Notes: a model not told the origin generated them from the sequence alone. DNA of 64,000 nucleotides from Gammaproteobacteria bacterium (GCA_040183005.1 JAMPIW010000007.1:1246188-1310187); one strand, 5' to 3'. Numbered from the stretch's first letter, positions 7,633 through 58,802 are shown. Program-made: numbers and translations.

Positions 7633-7678
7633 TTTCTACTCCGGAATACGGTGGTTTAACTTTAAAAAACTATATGAA

Positions 7679-7803
7679 CCGCAGAGCGCGCGGAGAGCGC
7701 AAAGAAATTCATATGGTTAGCGTAAGGCGCACTTTCACCCAGCGGGTGACTCGACACAACTTGCCAAGGTCTTTTTTCTCTGCGTTCTCCGTGCGCTCTG
7801 CGG
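7679..7803. repeat. Family-1 intergenic inverted-repeat element, copy A (~125 bp; arms built from three GCAGAG-type units followed by an A-run)
   Basis: Left arm ccgcagagcgcgcggagagcgcaaagaaa. The reverse complement of the right arm is ccgcagagcgcacggagaacgcagagaaaaa. The central part is homologous (in inverted orientation) to the copy at 58654-58783, including the shared GTTAGCGTAA...CAAGGTC core. Confidence 0.6.
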
Positions 7804-7863
7804 TGAATCGCCGTTTTTAAGCCTTACCTTGCTTTTCAATCTGACTACTTCTAGCATAGGATC

Positions 7864-8902: not shown

Positions 8903-9081
8903 TCAGACTTCCTCGTCCGCTCCAAGTTTACGCGCCTCTTCTTCGAGCATGACGGGGATTTCGTCGCGGATTGGATAGGCCAGGCGATCCGCCTTGCAGA
9001 TGAGTTCCGCTTCTGCCTTTTTGTAAACGAGCGGACTCTTGCAGATGGGGCACACAAGAATATCGAGTAATTTTTTATCCA
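8903..9081 (-). CDS. Trm112/YcaR-family small protein (DUF343), ~59 aa. It is absent from the ORF track because it is shorter than 60 aa.
   Basis: Reverse-strand translation reads [59 protein letters not shown]. It sits in the conserved lpxK-ycaR-kdsB context. Coordinates may be off by one. Confidence 0.7.
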
Positions 9082-9100
9082 TTTTTCACCTTCTTCAATG

Positions 9101-9245
9101 TGAGAACCTGTTCACGATCTCGATCAAGGGATGCAGTGCAAGGCAAAATCGAACGAAAAAGCGGAGCATACACGAACTATGTGAGCATTTTGAGTTCGAT
9201 TTTAACGCCGCAATGCGCTCTTCAGCGAGATCGTGAACAGGTTCT
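9101..9245. repeat. Family-2 intergenic element, copy 1 (~145 bp): a 106-bp conserved core flanked by 19-20-bp inverted repeats. The right IR encodes the last 7 residues of LpxK.
   Basis: IRs gagaacctgttcacgatctc / gagatcgtgaacaggttct. The core is ~85% identical to the reverse complement of 30437-30539. Confidence 0.6.
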
Positions 9246-10211
9246 TAGCAAGTTAAGTAATCGCTTACCAAACCCCTCATCCAGCTCTGCATCCACCGGC
9301 AGATACCAGTGCTGCGCACCGGCAAACCTGCGGCATTTTGCCGCGTCTTTTTCAGTCATGATAACAGGCGCATTGTCGCCGAATTGAATATCCTGCGCCA
9401 CAAACGGATGGTGATCCGGGAAAACATGTTCGATGATGGTCATTCCGAGACTTTTAAGGTGCTCAAAAAACCGCGACGGATGGCCAATGCCTGCAACCGC
9501 GTGGATAACCTGCCCCTGAAAATCCGTGGGTTGGCGCGTCATGGATTCATCGCATAAATTACGGATCAAGCCGCTACGCAGTCGCATGGAAAACTGGCCT
9601 TGCCCTGCCTGCCCGTTGTTCACCACGACCAGATCCACGCTCTTTAATCGGCCTTGTGGCTCGCGCAATGGCCCTGCTGGCAGACAATAACCATTGCCGA
9701 AGCGGCGCGTGCCGTCGATCACTGCGATTTCTATATCACGGCCCAGCGCATAATGTTGCAAACCATCGTCGGAGATAATAATGTCGCACGCCGCACTTTC
9801 CAGCACCTTTCTGGCTGCGGCAACGCGATTTGGCGCAACTGCCATCGGGCATCCGCATCGCCGCGCCAACAGCACAGCCTCATCCCCCACCAGCGCGGGG
9901 TCACTACCTGCATTCACCAATTGTGGCCACTGGCAGGCCTTGCCACCATAGCCGCGACTGACAATAGCGGGCGAATATCCAGCCTGTTCGAGATGCCCAA
10001 CCAACCACGCCACCAACGGCGTTTTGCCAGTACCACCGACACTGATATTTCCAATCACAATTACCGGCACGGGCAGCCGCGTGACCTTGCGCAATCCGGC
10101 GCGATAGGCCATGCGGCGCAGCATGACCACCAGACAGAACAGCCAGGACAGGGGCGCCAGCAATACCGATATGGGATTATTGCTGTACCAATAATGATCC
10201 AGCCGCTGCAT
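9222..10211 (-). CDS. lpxK: Tetraacyldisaccharide 4'-kinase (lipid A biosynthesis)
   Basis: P-loop VGGTGKTP. The ORF extends to 10274, but the Met at 10211 (MQRLDHYW) avoids overlapping msbA. Confidence 0.85.
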   Translation of the reverse strand: MQRLDHYWYSNNPISVLLAPLSWLFCLVVMLRRMAYRAGLRKVTRLPVPVIVIGNISVGGTGKTPLVAWLVGHLEQAGYSPAIVSRGYGGKACQWPQLVNAGSDPALVGDEAVLLARRCGCPMAVAPNRVAAARKVLESAACDIIISDDGLQHYALGRDIEIAVIDGTRRFGNGYCLPAGPLREPQGRLKSVDLVVVNNGQAGQGQFSMRLRSGLIRNLCDESMTRQPTDFQGQVIHAVAGIGHPSRFFEHLKSLGMTIIEHVFPDHHPFVAQDIQFGDNAPVIMTEKDAAKCRRFAGAQHWYLPVDAELDEGFGKRLLNLLRTCSRSR

Positions 10212-10216
10212 GCGCG

Positions 10217-11974
10217 TTAACTGATCTCCGCAGCAAACTGCATGCGATGCAGATTGGCGTAATGCCCGCCACACGCCAGCAGTTCGGTGTGCCCGCCCTG
10301 CTCCACGATCTGCCCGGCATCCATCACCACAATCACATCCGCCTGTTCAATGGTGGACAGCCGGTGGGCGATAATCAACGTGGTACGGTTGCGCACAAGC
10401 TGGGCAAGCGCAGCCTGGATCATGCGCTCTGATTCGGTATCCAGCGAGGCCGTGGCCTCATCGAGAATCAGCACAGGCGCGTCCTTCAGCAGAGCACGGG
10501 CAATCGCCAGACGTTGCCGCTGACCGCCGGACAACATCATGCCCTTCTCACCGACAATGGTCTGCAAACCCTCCGGCAGCTTACGAATAAACCCCATCGC
10601 ATGCGCCGCCTCGGCGGCACGAATGATATCTGTCTCGCTCACATCACTCCAGCGTCCATATGCAATGTTATTGGCGATAGTGTCATTGAACAGGGTCACA
10701 TCCTGGCCCACAAGTGCGATTTGATTGCGCAGGTCTTCAAGCTTGAAGTCGCGGATATCGCAACCATCGAGCGTGATACGGCCTGTAGTCAGGTCATAAA
10801 AACGCGGCAGCAGGCTGACCAGCGTTGTTTTACCACTACCGGAGCGTCCGACAAATGCGACTGTCTGGCCGGGTTCGATCTTCAGGCTGATATTTTCCAG
10901 CACCCTGCCCTTCGTTGAGTCATAGCTAAACGAGACATTGCCGTATTCGATGGCGCCACGCGCACGCTCGATGCGTACCGTGCCGGTATCTTTTTCCGCC
11001 TCACAATCCAGCAGGCCAAAAATGCTTTCCGAGGCAACGATGCCGCGCTGAATCGAGGAATGAATAGTGGTCAGGCGCTTGAGCGGTGTAAGCAGCATGG
11101 TCATGGCAACGATGAACGACATAAACGTGCCCACCGTAATCGTTGCCAGCATGGAATCCATGGTCGCCAAATAGATGATGCCAGCCAGCGCAGCCCCCGC
11201 AACCAGCTGAACCAAAGGGACACTCGCTTCCCGCGTCGCCGTCATTTTCATGTGCTGACGCCGGTTGACTGCGTTCACGTTGTCAAAAATTTCCGCCTGG
11301 TGGCGCTGACCGCCAAAAATCTTGATGACACGCTGCCCTTCAATAGTCTGGCCCACCGCCTCGGTAACACCGCCCATGCTTGCCTGGATGCGGCCACTGA
11401 TGCGCCGGAAACGCCTATTCACATAGACCACCAGTAATGCGATGAGAGGGCCGGTCAACATAAAGGTAATGGCCAGCATCCAGTTCAGGTAAAACATCCA
11501 GGCCAGCAGGCCGGCGATGGTCAAGGTATCCCGCACAACAACGGTCAACACACTGGTGGATGCCTCCGCGACCTGCTCCACATCATAGACCAACTTTGAA
11601 ATCAACTGCCCTGAGGAACTTTTGTCATAGAACCCGGCAGGCAGACGCAGCATATGCTCGAACATCTCCCGGCGCAGATTATTGATCACCTGCCGCCCCA
11701 CCCAGGTCATCCCATAGGAGGATAAAAATCCACTGACACCGCGCAGAATAAACAATCCGATAATCGCCAGCGGGATGATGCGGATGGTATCCGGGTCTTT
11801 GTTTACAAAGCTGCCATCCAGCATGGGCTTCATCAGCGCGGCAAATCCGGTGTCGGTGGCCGCCAGAATCACCATGGCGATGATAGAGATAGCGAAGATT
11901 TTCCAGTAGGGCCGCGCATATCCAAGCAGGCGGCGATATACCATGGAGATGCTCGGGGAGGATGAATCAGTCAT
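10217..11974 (-). CDS. msbA: Lipid A export ABC transporter, fused permease/ATPase
   Basis: 585 aa. N-terminal six-TM region followed by an ABC ATPase (GRSGSGKTT, LSGGQRQR). Confidence 0.9.
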   Translation of the reverse strand: MTDSSSPSISMVYRRLLGYARPYWKIFAISIIAMVILAATDTGFAALMKPMLDGSFVNKDPDTIRIIPLAIIGLFILRGVSGFLSSYGMTWVGRQVINNLRREMFEHMLRLPAGFYDKSSSGQLISKLVYDVEQVAEASTSVLTVVVRDTLTIAGLLAWMFYLNWMLAITFMLTGPLIALLVVYVNRRFRRISGRIQASMGGVTEAVGQTIEGQRVIKIFGGQRHQAEIFDNVNAVNRRQHMKMTATREASVPLVQLVAGAALAGIIYLATMDSMLATITVGTFMSFIVAMTMLLTPLKRLTTIHSSIQRGIVASESIFGLLDCEAEKDTGTVRIERARGAIEYGNVSFSYDSTKGRVLENISLKIEPGQTVAFVGRSGSGKTTLVSLLPRFYDLTTGRITLDGCDIRDFKLEDLRNQIALVGQDVTLFNDTIANNIAYGRWSDVSETDIIRAAEAAHAMGFIRKLPEGLQTIVGEKGMMLSGGQRQRLAIARALLKDAPVLILDEATASLDTESERMIQAALAQLVRNRTTLIIAHRLSTIEQADVIVVMDAGQIVEQGGHTELLACGGHYANLHRMQFAAEIS

Positions 11975-21661: not shown

Positions 21662-21755
<94 letters not shown>

Positions 21756-23968: not shown

Positions 23969-23994
23969 TGTTGTGCCCGTTTTAATTTATTAAT

Positions 23995-24115
23995 CACAGA
24001 GAACACAGAGTTCACAGAGAAAAAACGATTTCCCCATGAAGGAGACAATGCGGCATTGCACCCTTCACGGGGACGAGAACCCGCACCACCTCTGTGTTCT
24101 CTGTGAACTCTGTGG
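23995..24115. repeat. Family-1-like inverted-repeat element, copy C (arms CACAGAG x3 + A6 / T... CTCTGTG x3) in the guaA-guaB intergenic region
   Basis: cacagagaacacagagttcacagagaaaaaa ... tctgtgttctctgtgaactctgtgg. Confidence 0.5.
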
Positions 24116-25610: not shown

Positions 25611-26177
25611 GGGGAGGGTTCCGCCTTAATTGGGAAAAGAATTAACTGATAAGTATAAATTTTATCCTTGACCAGGTAAATAGCATAAAAAATATGGGAT
25701 TGCCGTGCGTCCTGCACCGAACTGCCGGGATATCTTAAATGCAATCATACACCTGCCTGATCCCAGCAACTCCAAGCATGCTTGCGCGTAGTGATATGAA
25801 GACATACGAAATACAATAAAATCAAATAGATAAATAATAGCAAGCTATGGGATGTCCCCATTCAGGGACGTTCGTGCAGATTCTTTGGGGATTTTGGCCT
25901 GATTAGCGCCTTCCGCGCGCTTATTACTGCGACATACGGGTGCCTTACCTTGCTCTTGCCGCCTTATAAATGTGCAATATCTTGCTTGCGCATACCGGCT
26001 AACCCATCAACATCATAATTTTTTGTTATATTTTTCATAATGTTAATTTTAGTAACCCCGGAAAGAAAAATATGGCACGATGTCTGCGTGATATTGCGTG
26101 CAGCAACCCAGTTGCTTTTTTACACCGTAACCCAGTGCTTTTTAATCACGGCGTAACAAAACACTGACAGACTAACT

Positions 26178-26212
26178 CATGCTATCCGGCACCTCTCTCC
26201 TGGATGGCATGA
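26178..26212 (+). promoter_or_regulatory. Leader hairpin immediately upstream of the RBS of DUF2892-like gene 1 (slightly degenerate copy)
   Basis: catgctatcc...ggatggcatg; homologous to the perfect hairpin at 27080-27113. Confidence 0.4.
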
Positions 26213-26242
26213 GTTAGTCCCCATTAAATGGAGGTATATGGA

Positions 26243-26524
26243 ATGAAGGATTTTGAAATGACAGCGAACATAGGTGGCGCCGACAAGGGCTTTAGAACGA
26301 TTGTCGGAATGACCTTGCTAGGCGTGGCGTTGGCACACCCAACATCCACATTGTACGCCACCGTGTTTCCAGTGATCGGGGCCTATTTCGTCCTGACGGC
26401 GATCATGGAATGGGATCCTATTGGCTATCTGGTTCAGTCAGCACAGAAGGTCATTAACCACCTGGGTGAGATGGTCAGCTCGCCGGCCATGGGGTTAATG
26501 TCACGACAAGCTCTCAGCGCCTGA
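26243..26524 (+). CDS. Small membrane protein, DUF2892 (YgaP-TM-like) family, paralogue 1 of 3
   Basis: MKDFEMTANIGGADKGFRTIVGMTLLG...AIMEWDPIGYL. SD GGAGG sits 7 nt upstream of the ATG at 26243. About 85% identical to the two downstream paralogues. Confidence 0.55.
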   Translation: MKDFEMTANIGGADKGFRTIVGMTLLGVALAHPTSTLYATVFPVIGAYFVLTAIMEWDPIGYLVQSAQKVINHLGEMVSSPAMGLMSRQALSA

Positions 26525-26775
26525 TGGCAGGTGCGTGGGCAAGGATGCACCGTGGGCCGCCATGGATGGCTGAGGCCACGACTAAACACATGTAGGGTGC
26601 GTTCCACGCACCACAACCATTTGTGCGCGGGACGCATTACTGCTCCACTGTCAATTTAATGTTTCAAATTTAGCAGCAACAGTTTGCAGGAGTGGCAGGT
26701 AACCTCGGGGACCCGTTACATACTGGCACCCCCTCCCGCCTTTTGGCACGGGGCCACGAGCAGCCGCTCCTACCC
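26520..26775. repeat. ~255-bp segmental repeat following paralogue 1. It matches 27764-27980, the region following paralogue 3 that runs into the xseA 5' flank.
   Basis: Near-identical blocks; for example, the 115-bp block 26661-26775 matches 27865-27980 with a few mismatches. Confidence 0.7.
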
Positions 26776-26972
26776 TTTTATTTCAATTTCCGCAAATAAC
26801 CCGCAAAACGCATATCCACCCTCACCGGTCATGACATGCACGTTGTCTTTTGTGAAAAACTGTTTCCTCGTGCCCGGCATCAGAAATCCACCACCTTCTT
26901 ATCGCTGAACTTGCCCACCACCCCTCCTTTTGTTGCCATCAAGTGAAAAATTTCCGGCAAGAGGCTTGACAT

Positions 26973-27008
26973 CCGACTTAATTGGGAATAAATTCCCAAT
27001 TAAGTCGG
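26973..27008. promoter_or_regulatory. Perfect 17-bp-arm palindrome CCGACTTAATTGGGAAT-aa-ATTCCCAATTAAGTCGG (candidate operator or hairpin), ~135 bp upstream of paralogue 2
   Basis: Read directly. Preceded by a TTGACA hexamer. Confidence 0.45.
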
Positions 27009-27079
27009 AAACGGCGAGCAGTCCACGGAACAGATACTGTTTTTTAATCGTGGTGCAACAAAACACTGACAGACTAACT

Positions 27080-27113
27080 CATGCCATCCGGCCCCTCTCT
27101 CCTGGATGGCATG
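27080..27113 (+). promoter_or_regulatory. Leader hairpin (10-bp perfect stem catgccatcc/ggatggcatg, 14-nt loop) just upstream of the RBS of paralogue 2
   Basis: Conserved with the copy at 26178-26212. The third paralogue carries a truncated version. Confidence 0.45.
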
Positions 27114-27144
27114 AGGAAGTCCCTACCAAATGGAGGTACATGTA

Positions 27145-27426
27145 ATGAAGTATTTTGAAATGACAGCGAACATAAGTGGCGCCGACAAGGGCTTTAGAGC
27201 GATAGCCGGAATGGCCTTGCTAGGCATGGCGTTGGCACATCCAACGTCGGCATTGTACGCCACAGTCTTCCCAATGATCGGGGCCTATTTTGTTCTGACG
27301 GCGATCATGGAATGGGATCCTATTGGCTATCTGGTTCAGTCAATACAAAACGTCCTTAATCACTTAGGTGAGATGGCAGGTTCATCGGCCAAGGGAATAA
27401 GGACACCACAAGCTTTCAGCGCCTGA
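27145..27426 (+). CDS. Small membrane protein, DUF2892-like, paralogue 2
   Basis: MKYFEMTANISGADKGFRAIAGMALLGMALA...; SD GGAGG upstream. Confidence 0.55.
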   Translation: MKYFEMTANISGADKGFRAIAGMALLGMALAHPTSALYATVFPMIGAYFVLTAIMEWDPIGYLVQSIQNVLNHLGEMAGSSAKGIRTPQAFSA

Positions 27427-27482
27427 TTACGCCTGAGCGGACAAGGATGCGAGGAAGTCCCTATCAAATGGAGGTACATGTA

Positions 27483-27764
27483 ATGAAGTATTTTGAAATG
27501 ACAGCGAACATAAGTGGCGCCGACAAGGGCTTTAGGACAATTGTCGGAATGGCCTTATTGGGCATGGCGTTGGCAGATCCAACGTCGACATTGTGCGCCA
27601 CCGTCTTCCCAATGATCGGGGCCTATTTCGTCCTGACGGCGATCATGGAGTGGGATCCTATTGGCTATCTGGTTCAATCGGCACAGAAGGTCCTTAATAA
27701 CTTAGGTGAGATGGCCGGTTCATCGGCCATGGGAATAAAGACACCACAAACTTTCGGCGCCTGA
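27483..27764 (+). CDS. Small membrane protein, DUF2892-like, paralogue 3
   Basis: Same family. Its leader is truncated relative to paralogues 1 and 2. Confidence 0.55.
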   Translation: MKYFEMTANISGADKGFRTIVGMALLGMALADPTSTLCATVFPMIGAYFVLTAIMEWDPIGYLVQSAQKVLNNLGEMAGSSAMGIKTPQTFGA

Positions 27765-28019
27765 TTGGCCTGAGTGAGCAAGGATGCATCGTGGGTCGCC
27801 ATGGACGGCTGAGGCCACGACTAATCATATGCAGGGTGTGTCCCACGCACCACTATTGATTTAGAGTTTCAAATTTAGCAGCTACAGTTTGTAGGAGTGG
27901 CAGGTAACCTCGGGGACCCGTTACATACTGGCACCCCCTCCCGCCTTTTTGCGCGGGGCCACGAGCAGCCGCTCCTACCCTTATCTCCCTTTCTGCGGAC
28001 AACCCGCAAAACGCCGACC

Positions 28020-29477: not shown

Positions 29478-30416
29478 ATGATTCGACAAGCTCACCACGA
29501 ACGGCGCTGTACGCTCTATTTCGCCGTGGGACAATCTGGGTTAATATCGCGGGCACTTGCGCTGCTGCTCATGCTGGCCTTTTCCACAACTTTGCTGGCC
29601 GCCAACACCCTGCCCCGCACCGAACCCGTGCCGGGCGGTGTCGCCATTATTTCTCTGCCAGTAACTCCCGTCCCTGAAAAGGATTGGTGGGCGCGCATAG
29701 CACAGGACAACAAACCGACACCCCCCGTCGCCTACTTCAATGGACAACGGGTACTCATTACCCCGAATGAAACGGGCTGGGCCGCTATCGTTGGCATACC
29801 CCTGGACACCACACCCGGCGAATACAGGCTGGACGTGCAGCCCGTGACAGGCATAAAAGAAACCATAGAATTTACTGTGCGCGGCAAGGAGTATGCCGCC
29901 CAGCACATCACCCTCAAAGACCAGCGCAAGGTTGAACCGCCACCAGAGGATCTGAAACGCATCGAAAAAGAAGCGGAACAGATCAAAGCGGCATTCGCTC
30001 AGTGGAGCGAGCAGCGCGATATATCACTGGACTTCCTTCGGCCGGCGCAGGGCGATTTATCCAGTCCCTTTGGCCTACGGCGTTTCTTCAACGGCCAGCC
30101 GCGCAACCCGCATAGCGGCCTGGACATCGCCGCCCCCAGCGGCACGCCGGTGCGCACCCCGTCGGACGGAATGGTGATCGCCACCGGCGATTATTTCTTC
30201 AATGGCAACACCGTATTCATCGACCATGGCCAAGGCCTCGTCACCATGTATTGCCACCTGAGCAGCATCACCGTCCAGCCCGGCCAGCGATTAGCACGCG
30301 GCGCGATCATCGGCGCGGTGGGAATGACAGGGCGTGCCACCGGCCCGCACCTGCACTGGAGCGTGAGCCTCAACAACACCCGCGTCGACCCGGCGCTTTT
30401 TTTGCCGGGCCGCTAA
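29478..30416 (+). CDS. M23-family metallopeptidase (lysostaphin-like), secreted
   Basis: Signal peptide. HxxxD and HLHWS-type M23 motifs (HSGLDIAAPSGTPV, GPHLHW). Confidence 0.85.
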   Translation: MIRQAHHERRCTLYFAVGQSGLISRALALLLMLAFSTTLLAANTLPRTEPVPGGVAIISLPVTPVPEKDWWARIAQDNKPTPPVAYFNGQRVLITPNETGWAAIVGIPLDTTPGEYRLDVQPVTGIKETIEFTVRGKEYAAQHITLKDQRKVEPPPEDLKRIEKEAEQIKAAFAQWSEQRDISLDFLRPAQGDLSSPFGLRRFFNGQPRNPHSGLDIAAPSGTPVRTPSDGMVIATGDYFFNGNTVFIDHGQGLVTMYCHLSSITVQPGQRLARGAIIGAVGMTGRATGPHLHWSVSLNNTRVDPALFLPGR

Positions 30417-30418
30417 TC

Positions 30419-30557
30419 CTACTGTGTCACAAAGTGCTGAAGGGCGCATTGCGGTGTTAAAATCGGGCTCAAAATGCTCATTTACCACGTGTAAACTGCG
30501 CTTTTTCGCCCGATTTTGCCTTGCACTGCATCCCTTGATCACTTTGTGACACAGTAG
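30419..30557. repeat. Family-2 intergenic element, copy 2 (~139 bp, inverted relative to copy 1). It is flanked by different 18-bp inverted repeats, CTACTGTGTCACAAAGTG / CACTTTGTGACACAGTAG.
   Basis: The core is ~85% identical to the core of 9101-9245. An internal 10-bp stem aaaatcgGGc/gCCcgatttt covaries with aaaatcgAAc/gTTcgatttt in copy 1. Confidence 0.6.
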
Positions 30558-30578
30558 GACTAATCTCTGAGCGCTCAT

Positions 30579-31643: not shown

Positions 31644-31817
31644 CTTCCCTCATTGGCTATGTTGATGTCCGAGACAATGCAACTTGTGCGCCAAAGAGGT
31701 ATTGGGGAGACAAAAGGCAAGACCAGCGGCGAGATGTGGGGAGGGAGCGGCCCTCAGAGGCTATAAAAATATTCCACTGCGGTAGATATAGTGGTTTTTC
31801 ACAACCTCTTGGTTATG

Positions 31818-31866
31818 TAGGGTGCGTCCCACGCACCACAATCATTGGTGCGTGGGACGCACCCTA
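31818..31866. repeat. REP-like perfect palindrome TAGGGTGCGTCCCACGCACCA-caatcat-TGGTGCGTGGGACGCACCCTA between lspA and the fliK-like gene. Degenerate copies at 26590-26640 and 27818-27850.
   Basis: 21-bp arms read directly. Each arm contains a nested palindrome, GTGCGTCCCACGCAC. Confidence 0.55.
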
Positions 31867-31883
31867 CGGATTTAAAAATGGGA

Positions 31884-58584: not shown

Positions 58585-58653
58585 TCAACAACCTCTCGAA
58601 GTAGGGACAAGACTCCTCGCCCGCCCTAATATTATCCTGAAAATGGCGATTCA

Positions 58654-58783
58654 CCGCAGAGCGCGCAGAGAATGCAGAGGAAAAACGAGACCTTGACAAA
58701 ATATGCCAAACCACCCCCGCCAGGTGGGCACGCTTGTTACGCTAACTCCCTGAATTTCTTTGCGTCCTCTGCGTACTCTGCGG
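58654..58783. repeat. Family-1 intergenic inverted-repeat element, copy B (in inverted orientation relative to copy A)
   Basis: ccgcagagcgcgcagagaatgcagaggaaaaa ... tttctttgcgtcctctgcgtactctgcgg. The reverse complement of its centre aligns with the centre of copy A. Confidence 0.6.
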
Positions 58784-58802
58784 TTCAATAGCTTTTTTCG
58801 GA

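Follow-up and report, generated by a model that had tools for sequence, protein, structure and literature searches.

Two hairpin elements with a common core and different transposon ends in a gammaproteobacterial genome

The gap between trm112 and lpxK near position 9,100 of the window (the whole stretch of DNA analyzed here, 64,000 nucleotides in length) holds a ~140-bp element that shares its core with a second copy about 21 kb away, and the question raised by the pair is how two elements with such similar centers come to have outer arms that differ completely in sequence and still pair perfectly within each copy. A preliminary description read them as a structured RNA or a novel MITE, leaning toward the RNA. 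Both features are very probably copies of a ~140-bp non-autonomous DNA transposon (MITE) with ends of the IS5 and IS701 families, so the MITE half of that description stands, as do the compensatory changes it reported inside the core, and the argument drawn from the outer stems in favor of RNA does not. The evidence consists of the multi-copy spread, the classes of terminal inverted repeat, the target duplications, the empty sites found for both insertions, the termini identical to those of insertion sequences (ISs) and the replacement of the lpxK tail. Within the window this is an ordinary MITE, the sole unusual feature being a conserved central hairpin that is found in many other bacteria. 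The two insertions, the altered LpxK C terminus and the lost lpxK-trm112 overlap are thereby explained.

The two copies and their insertion sites

A search of the 64 kb finds the core twice and no more, in opposite orientations, and the 105 nucleotides common to 9122-9226 and 30436-30540 are 87% identical as reverse complements. The outer arms of 18-20 nt have no sequence common to both copies and pair perfectly inside each, and the internal exchange of AA/TT for GG/CC is present in the alignment, all of which agrees with the preliminary description. The boundaries proposed there (9101-9245 and 30419-30557) mark real copies, whose true limits are shifted to 9104-9244 and 30417-30559 by comparison with the 70 complete copies described below. 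The orientation termed top is that of all other aligned copies and corresponds to the plus strand in copy 1 and the minus strand in copy 2. The features of the two loci are as follows.

9104-9244, plus strand: MITE copy 1, family A, 141 bp, limits set by 25 family-A copies
9101-9103: left flank of copy 1, TGA, a degenerate 3-bp TNA target duplication
9245-9247: right flank of copy 1, TTA, partner of the TGA at 9101-9103
9104-9120, plus strand: left terminal inverted repeat of copy 1, GAACCTGTTCACGATCT, the same as both ends of the Xanthomonas IS (17/17)
9228-9244, plus strand: right terminal inverted repeat of copy 1, AGATCGTGAACAGGTTC, the minus strand of which is part of the new LpxK tail
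9157-9191, plus strand: central module of copy 1, AAAAGCGGAG-CATACACGAACTATG-TGAGCATTTT, located by regular expression and alignment
9222-9245, minus strand: new lpxK 3' end, seven element-encoded codons (RTCSRSR) and TGA at 9224-9222, from translation
9075-9100, minus strand: stranded relic of the old lpxK 3' end (..LKKVKNG*), from the alignment of filled and empty sites
30417-30559, minus strand: MITE copy 2, family B, 143 bp, limits set by 45 family-B copies
30413-30416: left target-site duplication of copy 2, CTAA, holding the M23 peptidase stop codon TAA at 30414-30416
30560-30563: right target-site duplication of copy 2, CTAA, a perfect match to the left one
30417-30433, plus strand: terminal inverted repeat of copy 2, TCCTACTGTGTCACAAA
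30543-30559, plus strand: opposite terminal inverted repeat of copy 2, TTTGTGACACAGTAGGA
30471-30505, minus strand: central module of copy 2, AAAAGCGCAG-TTTACACGTGGTAAA-TGAGCATTTT, located by regular expression and alignment

The lpxK reading frame (9222-10274, minus strand) enters copy 1 by 21 nt, giving the C-terminal residues RTCSRSR and the stop codon at 9222-9224 that had been noticed earlier. Comparison of lpxK 3' ends, as the preliminary description had proposed, shows that LpxK orthologues of 90-94% identity have 330 amino acids and the C terminus ...LLALKKVKNG or ...LLALRKVKNG, and that copy 1 is absent in eight relatives with a 100% identical Trm112, where lpxK and trm112 overlap by 8 nt. 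One of these eight, the MAG ND4_Bin_8, has near-identical copies of family A elsewhere. The empty site of the nearest relative (L135) reads TTGC-TAG-CATTGAAG, with CATTG following TAG, compared with TTGC-TAA-(element)-TCA-CATTGAAG in the window when viewed in the gene sense, and alignment to the empty sites gives a clean insertion of 141 bp plus a trinucleotide. Since the flanks differ (TGA/TTA), the duplication at copy 1 is assigned from the family and the empty site. The insertion swapped the last eight lpxK codons for seven encoded by the element and broke the overlap with trm112, leaving the old tail in front of trm112, where the relic still overlaps the start codon at 9082-9080.

Further repeats are present in this area. 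Between the identical-Trm112 relatives that were compared (L133, L135 and L137) the spacer downstream of kdsB differs by about 78 and 144 nt, and in ND4_Bin_8 (L133, about 2440-2580) the extra DNA downstream of kdsB is a copy with a third end class and the same core (GGGTGCCTCTATAAATT...), which makes the region near kdsB a repeated landing zone. A second, unrelated hairpin repeat of about 160 bp is located at 7662-7820 and, inverted, at 58640-58798 of the window, with arms AACCGCAGAGCGCGCGGAGAGCGCAAAGAAA / TTTCTCTGCGTTCTCCGTGCGCTCTGCGGT; one copy directly follows kdsB, and at 23989-24025 there is a sequence more weakly related to one arm. The ~300-nt repeats at 26136-27982 are three tandem paralogous genes (98, 98, and 105 amino acids) with a YgaP-like transmembrane domain (PF11127).

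Copy 2 sits between two convergent genes, those for an M23 peptidase (plus strand) and fliK (minus strand; PF02120). The exact sequence of the window M23 peptidase is not on record, and the empty site was located through a homologue (L145, 93% identical M23 peptidase), in which GGGCCG-ATAA-TCTCTGAGCGCTCATT takes the place of GGGCCG-CTAA-(143 bp)-CTAA-TCTCTGAGCGCTCATT in the window. The peptidase gene is untouched because the duplicated CTAA contains and regenerates its stop codon. A terminator-like hairpin followed by T7 is placed at 30382-30396 in the last codons of the M23 peptidase, directly upstream of copy 2, and with this hairpin and the convergent arrangement of the genes read-through from the peptidase gene is only one of two possibilities; the earlier statement that both loci are transcribed in the same sense is weakened accordingly for copy 2. 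In the MAG JACREB01 a truncated copy (L100 130-215) and a full copy of 191 bp (L100 1716-1905) flank a different M23 peptidase gene that adjoins secA, the element again being placed at the peptidase gene end.

Terminal inverted repeats and partner insertion sequences

A search with an exact core 23-mer, using one genome per species, gives at least 120 loci spread over about 20 MAGs, with those among the matches listed labeled Gallionella, Gallionellaceae, Nitrosomonadales, Nitrosomonas, Methylococcales and unclassified "Gammaproteobacteria" and with about 65 of the listed loci in JACREB01 alone. For 50 of the 125 matches listed, the end of the locus, mostly a contig end, is no more than 170 nt away, a clustering typical of repeats that break assemblies. 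The 70 copies with complete flanks among the matches listed define two end classes, each conserved across many MAGs. These classes and the autonomous ISs sharing their ends are as follows.

Family A (25 copies), 141 bp: ends GARCCTGTTCAMGATCT (GARCCTGTTCA...), 3-bp TNA duplication
Family B (45 copies), 143 bp: ends TCTTACTGTGTCACAAAGCG (TCTTACTGTGTCAC...), 4-bp YTAR duplication
Family A partner IS, L144 2004-2852, 849 bp: Xanthomonas campestris plasmid AP019683.1, target-site duplication TTA
Family B partner IS, L142 2510-3979, 1,470 bp: Ralstonia solanacearum megaplasmid CP076416.1, target-site duplication TTAG

Identical flanks, expected by chance in 1/64 of copies for the 3-bp class and 1/256 for the 4-bp class, are found among the matches listed in 14 of 25 family-A copies (TTA 9, TAA 3, TCA 2) and 28 of 45 family-B copies (CTAA 10, TTAG 9, plus CTAG, TTAA, ATAA, GTAA, and others). 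The element abuts the stop codon of a neighboring ORF in 13 of these 70 copies, a placement explained by the TNA/YTAR target preference, as the targets TAA, TGA, CTAA, CTAG, and TTAG resemble stop codons and landings are therefore often on or beside gene ends. A transposon with this preference can insert at stop codons without destroying the gene.

Longer variants (155-203 bp) contain internal insertions. In many copies a GC-rich insertion of 47-48 nt is found at a fixed position of the core, reading ...GTGGGTCAAGCAGGGATGGGCGGCTTGCCGTTGCCGCCCAACTCGC in family B, for which variants of 191 bp occur at L003, L005, L014, L023, L043, and other loci, and the 188-189-bp variants of family A (L021, L112, and L119) have a different insertion, CGGCAACTGCTCC...GCCGTCGT. 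The 47-48-nt insertions suggest nested small elements or modular additions.

The partner ISs were obtained by BLAST of the element ends against plasmid records. The Xanthomonas IS has GAACCTGTTCACGATCT at both ends (17/17 each) and encodes two overlapping ORFs matching NF033580 (NCBIfam, IS5 family); this IS427-like, two-ORF element has the same 17-nt termini and the same length and type of duplication (TTA) as copy 1. The ends of the Ralstonia IS match the family B consensus at 17/17 (TCTTACTGTGTCACAAA) and 16/17 (TCTTACTGTGTCATAAA) positions, its duplication is of the same type (TTAG), and its transposase of 348 amino acids matches NF033540 (IS701 family, 345 bits) and PF13546; the end of copy 2 in the window is itself one base off the consensus TCTTACTGTGTCACAAA (TCC versus TCT). 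The two ISs differ from the MITEs in encoding transposases, in their greater length, and in belonging to other genera. In both families the similarity of IS and MITE ends past the 17-nt terminus, indicating MITEs for which the ends are the sole part in common with an IS. The view that the outer stems are "not a transposase-binding end" is contradicted by the two conserved classes of inverted repeat, the duplications, and the 17-nt identity with ISs.

A search for terminal inverted repeats and tblastn with two IS5-family queries gave no partner transposase in the window or among the loci fetched from the matches listed, which are fragments; the two proteins matched only the loci of the queries themselves, and the solo terminal repeats in the fetched loci are further MITE copies. 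Across the plasmid records, the window, and the partial loci among the matches listed, matching autonomous ISs are found only in Xanthomonas and Ralstonia. A match of the right arm to a Cupriavidus plasmid was discarded as a chance match within coding-like sequence.

In the proposed mechanism the ~105-nt imperfect-palindrome core is flanked by 17-nt termini that would serve as the binding and cleavage ends for a DDE transposase supplied in trans, with the 3-bp TNA duplication made at the IS5-family (IS427-like) ends of copy 1 and the 4-bp YTAR duplication at the IS701-family ends of copy 2. Judged from the sequences of the termini, transposases of the IS5 and IS701 types may have mobilized these elements in trans in this lineage. 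The elements are small and non-coding, with conserved terminal inverted repeats, duplications of fixed length, dispersed copies and presence/absence polymorphism. Many copies with conserved inverted repeats and target-site duplications had been named in advance as the finding that would count against an RNA, and this is what the at least 120 loci show.

Among known systems the closest in kind are type II MITEs such as ERIC/IRU, Correia/NEMIS, and YPAL/RU-2, which are likewise non-coding elements of about 100-170 bp with terminal inverted repeats, short target duplications, dozens of mostly intergenic or gene-end copies, and long hairpins. ERIC and Correia duplicate TA, whereas the window family duplicates TNA or YTAR, and in a further difference with ERIC, Correia, and YPAL a single core is combined with the ends of at least two IS families. 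Enterobacterial elements can extend or replace the ends of ORFs (Delihas, PMC2759123), to which the window copies are comparable. Identity with YPAL/RU-2 was rejected, as the sequence given in the same paper is unrelated when compared by eye.

Fold, compensatory changes, and strand

Both copies form one long hairpin apiece whichever strand is folded (-62 to -73 kcal/mol, z -7.2 to -11.4), with values of -72.7 kcal/mol and z -9.9 for copy 1 and -71.8 kcal/mol and z -10.7 for copy 2, and no sequence among 200 shuffles is as stable as either copy. The consensus fold of 44 distinct canonical copies among the matches listed has 55 pairs, 24 of which have changes on both sides, in a sample in which the search pattern fixed the left arm and the copies share descent. 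Concordant change at both transposon ends is also predicted by transposase recognition. In the internal stems, with the ends left out, 98.8% of the cells of the 37 pairs are paired and compensatory changes occur at 9 pairs, in counts that ignore kinship; 0 of 500 shuffles reach these values, and shifting the partners by 1-3 columns drops the pairing to 24-48%. The compensated variants of the lower stem are GG/CC, AA/TT, GA/TC, GAT/ATC, and AAATYA/TRATTT, and others are AAAA/TTTT versus GGAA/TTCC and, at the tip, CATAC/GTATG versus TTTAC/GTAAA. Counted on the aligned strand there are 49 G.U cells against 11 A.C cells (in 22 and 9 columns, respectively), and G.U is invariant at two pairs, which hints that one strand is the relevant one. 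The strand that the mRNA would carry at both window loci is the opposite of the aligned strand.

These observations support maintenance of the element structure, and the core may have a structural role as RNA or as single-stranded DNA. The long hairpin is probably kept by selection on nucleic-acid structure, for which the candidate roles are a cruciform or single-strand hairpin that would unite both ends and a hairpin in a transcript. An element this short, with ends only ~105 bp apart, would gain from a palindrome able to extrude and unite them, which fits the unbiased orientation and the constant length of the element. A palindrome for end synapsis alone leaves the invariant asymmetric loop at the tip and the strand asymmetry unexplained, and thereby leaves room for an RNA or single-strand role. 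A plain MITE model with terminal inverted repeats only does not explain the excess of G.U over A.C either, nor the invariance of the module, including its unpaired positions, across unrelated ends.

The compensatory changes might instead be a mutational by-product of template switching in quasi-palindromes, an account that is somewhat unlikely. A replication template switch that copies one arm onto the other makes double changes in one step, and copying of an adjacent IS end to the opposite side of the hairpin would explain the different end pairs on one core. The entire element is an imperfect palindrome, the terminal repeat variants of family B change concordantly at both ends (for example pairs 13-18), the switch from core to end is placed at the same distance at both ends in each family (17 nt, then CGATCAAGG ... 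CTTCAGCG), and the correction of quasi-palindromes is well established as a source of mutations in E. coli, all in agreement with such copying. The same process should erase asymmetric loops and bulges, which are however invariant across families and taxa, and it does not predict the excess of G.U over A.C.

A core that is primarily a structured RNA, acting in cis in an mRNA or as a processed small RNA, with the transposon ends as its vehicle and selection on folding as the source of the covariation, appears unlikely. The orientation of the element relative to co-directional flanking ORFs is unbiased among the matches listed (17 sense and 19 antisense), no sigma-70-like promoter is found in either copy, and the strand expected in the mRNA would turn the G.U pairs into A.C mismatches at both window loci and at the two E. 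coli loci examined. The compensatory changes in the internal stems agree with an RNA, in counts that take no account of shared descent, as do the invariant G.U pairs with the G.U excess on one strand, and the invariant asymmetric internal loop (GSAG / UGAG) that caps the hairpin across several phyla. A 53-nt RNA of Salmonella Typhi, StyR-327, is reported to come from a putative MITE with multiple copies (PMC2943607) and is possibly related. In Rfam a gathering-score scan of the whole window gives no family at either copy, the best match in E-value mode is a plant miRNA hairpin with 24 bits compared with a threshold of 184, and the relatives in E. coli, Pseudomonas, Halomonas, and Haliscomenobacter have no matches. 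The sole Rfam match of the window is a tRNA gene at 21668-21755 on the minus strand.

Several other roles were considered for the element. A terminator is rejected, as a T-run was not found after the element hairpin. The module as a small ORF with a Shine-Dalgarno-like start (GGAG ... ATG/GTG AGC ATT TTG) is also rejected, as the downstream frame and its length vary between families. Compared by eye, the IHF, CsrA, TyrR, and sigma-54 motifs match only in part.

It is highly improbable that the copies are palindromes of the REP/REPIN type, mobilized by a RAYT (IS200/IS605-like) transposase, or attC-like sites of integrons. Both are contradicted by terminal inverted repeats identical to those of DDE ISs, by target duplications of 3-4 bp where IS200/IS605-type elements are not known to have either terminal inverted repeats or target duplications, and by the absence of a GTAG head from both copies. 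What REPINs share with the window copies (PMC3116915) is the form of long intergenic hairpin repeats with pairing kept by compensatory change; the terminal repeat and target duplication signature and the class of transposase differ. The window does contain a pair of perfect 22-nt palindromes with a GTAG head (GTAGGGTGCGTCCCACGCACCA / TGGTGCGTGGGACGCACCCTAC) at 31817-31867, with a second copy 5 kb apart at 26590-26636, which looks like a REP/REPIN-type repeat and is unrelated in sequence to the MITE copies.

The central module in other bacteria

Matches to the center of the core occur on plasmids and chromids of unrelated bacteria (Pseudomonas veronii, P. tremae/amygdali, Halomonas, Legionella, Candidatus Fukatsuia, Salmonella, and Haliscomenobacter, the last of the Bacteroidota), and each of these distant matches is the tip of a 140-160-bp hairpin that has its own, different inverted ends and mostly TTA/TAA/CTAG/TTAG flanks. 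An alignment of 11 elements of nine taxa has 19 invariant columns, 17 of them inside the module, and the invariant skeleton AA.CG.AG..TA ... TA..TGA..ATT....G represents AAAAGCGSAG followed by a stem-loop of 15 nt and by TGAGCATTTTGAG, with the same fold architecture of the tip in all aligned elements. The window copies belong with the E. coli 152-bp repeat in one superfamily, recognized by AAAMSCGSAG, a 15-nt hairpin, and TGAGSATTTYGAG, which form the apex of a hairpin ~140-150 bp long flanked by TNA or YTAR. Gallionellaceae loci carry the same core with at least three more end classes, GGGYGCCTCTATAAATT, GAGACCTCTGAGAAACT, and AAGCTCTGAAAAAGG. Scanning metagenomes with 23 specified bases of the module gives at least 120 matches; 83 of the 106 evaluable matches listed lie in ~140-bp hairpins with many different ends, including the IS5-like GGAAGCGCTGAATAATG, and exact CTAA/CTAG/TTAA/TTAG/TNA duplications are found in 35 of these 83. 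The module is absent from both autonomous ISs, those of Xanthomonas and Ralstonia, and on inspection the short frames that run through it are not conserved between families. No description of the family or of the module was found in the literature on Gallionella/Nitrosomonas MITEs, "RSA" repeats, and IS701/IS427 MITEs.

The invariance of the central module suggests a functional site. A tentative reading that joins these observations, possible rather than probable, is that the core, and its tip in particular, is a portable, functional single-stranded module that has been repeatedly combined with DDE ends, forming a very widespread, undescribed MITE superfamily. The module would be the ~40-nt tip AAAAGCGSAG - 15-nt hairpin - TGAGCATTTTGAG, with a tandem G.A-type loop and an invariant closing G.U pair, and the end families combined with it would be IS5/IS427-like, IS5-like, and IS701. 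Its range would take in Beta- and Gammaproteobacteria, at least one Bacteroidota plasmid, and the 152-bp repeat of every E. coli genome. The module would be a processed RNA or the tip of a DNA hairpin or cruciform that aids synapsis of ends ~105 bp apart, and hairpin-templated copying of a neighboring IS end could capture new end pairs. The wider point is that the same hairpin tip is present in MITEs with unrelated ends, in distant bacteria, and in an unannotated repeat of E. coli K-12. A function of the module, if it has one, would be directly testable in E. coli and would bear on why bacterial MITEs so often keep long hairpins.

The E. coli relative has a length of 152 bp and is present in all 5,426 complete genomes, in a median of 5 places, examples being hemE-nfi in strain 042 and glrK-qseG in K-12; it is probably the repeat catalogued as "RSA" when the K-12 genome was published in 1997. 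In architecture, length class, and TTA/TAA flanks it is like the window copies, its ends of the GAGCCTGGTC type resemble family A (GAGCCTGTTC), and its central module is likewise the same, AAACCGGAG-hairpin-TGAGGATTTTGAG. The flanking TTA contains the stop codon of hemE, just as the M23 peptidase stop codon lies inside the duplication at copy 2. It differs in the sequence of the arms that link ends and module, which is unrelated, in its low number of about 5 copies per genome, and in being unannotated in RefSeq. In K-12 the intergenic region between glrK and qseG (L141 6508-6671, NC_000913.3 2,689,507-2,689,670), which has no RefSeq annotation, consists wholly of this MITE relative.
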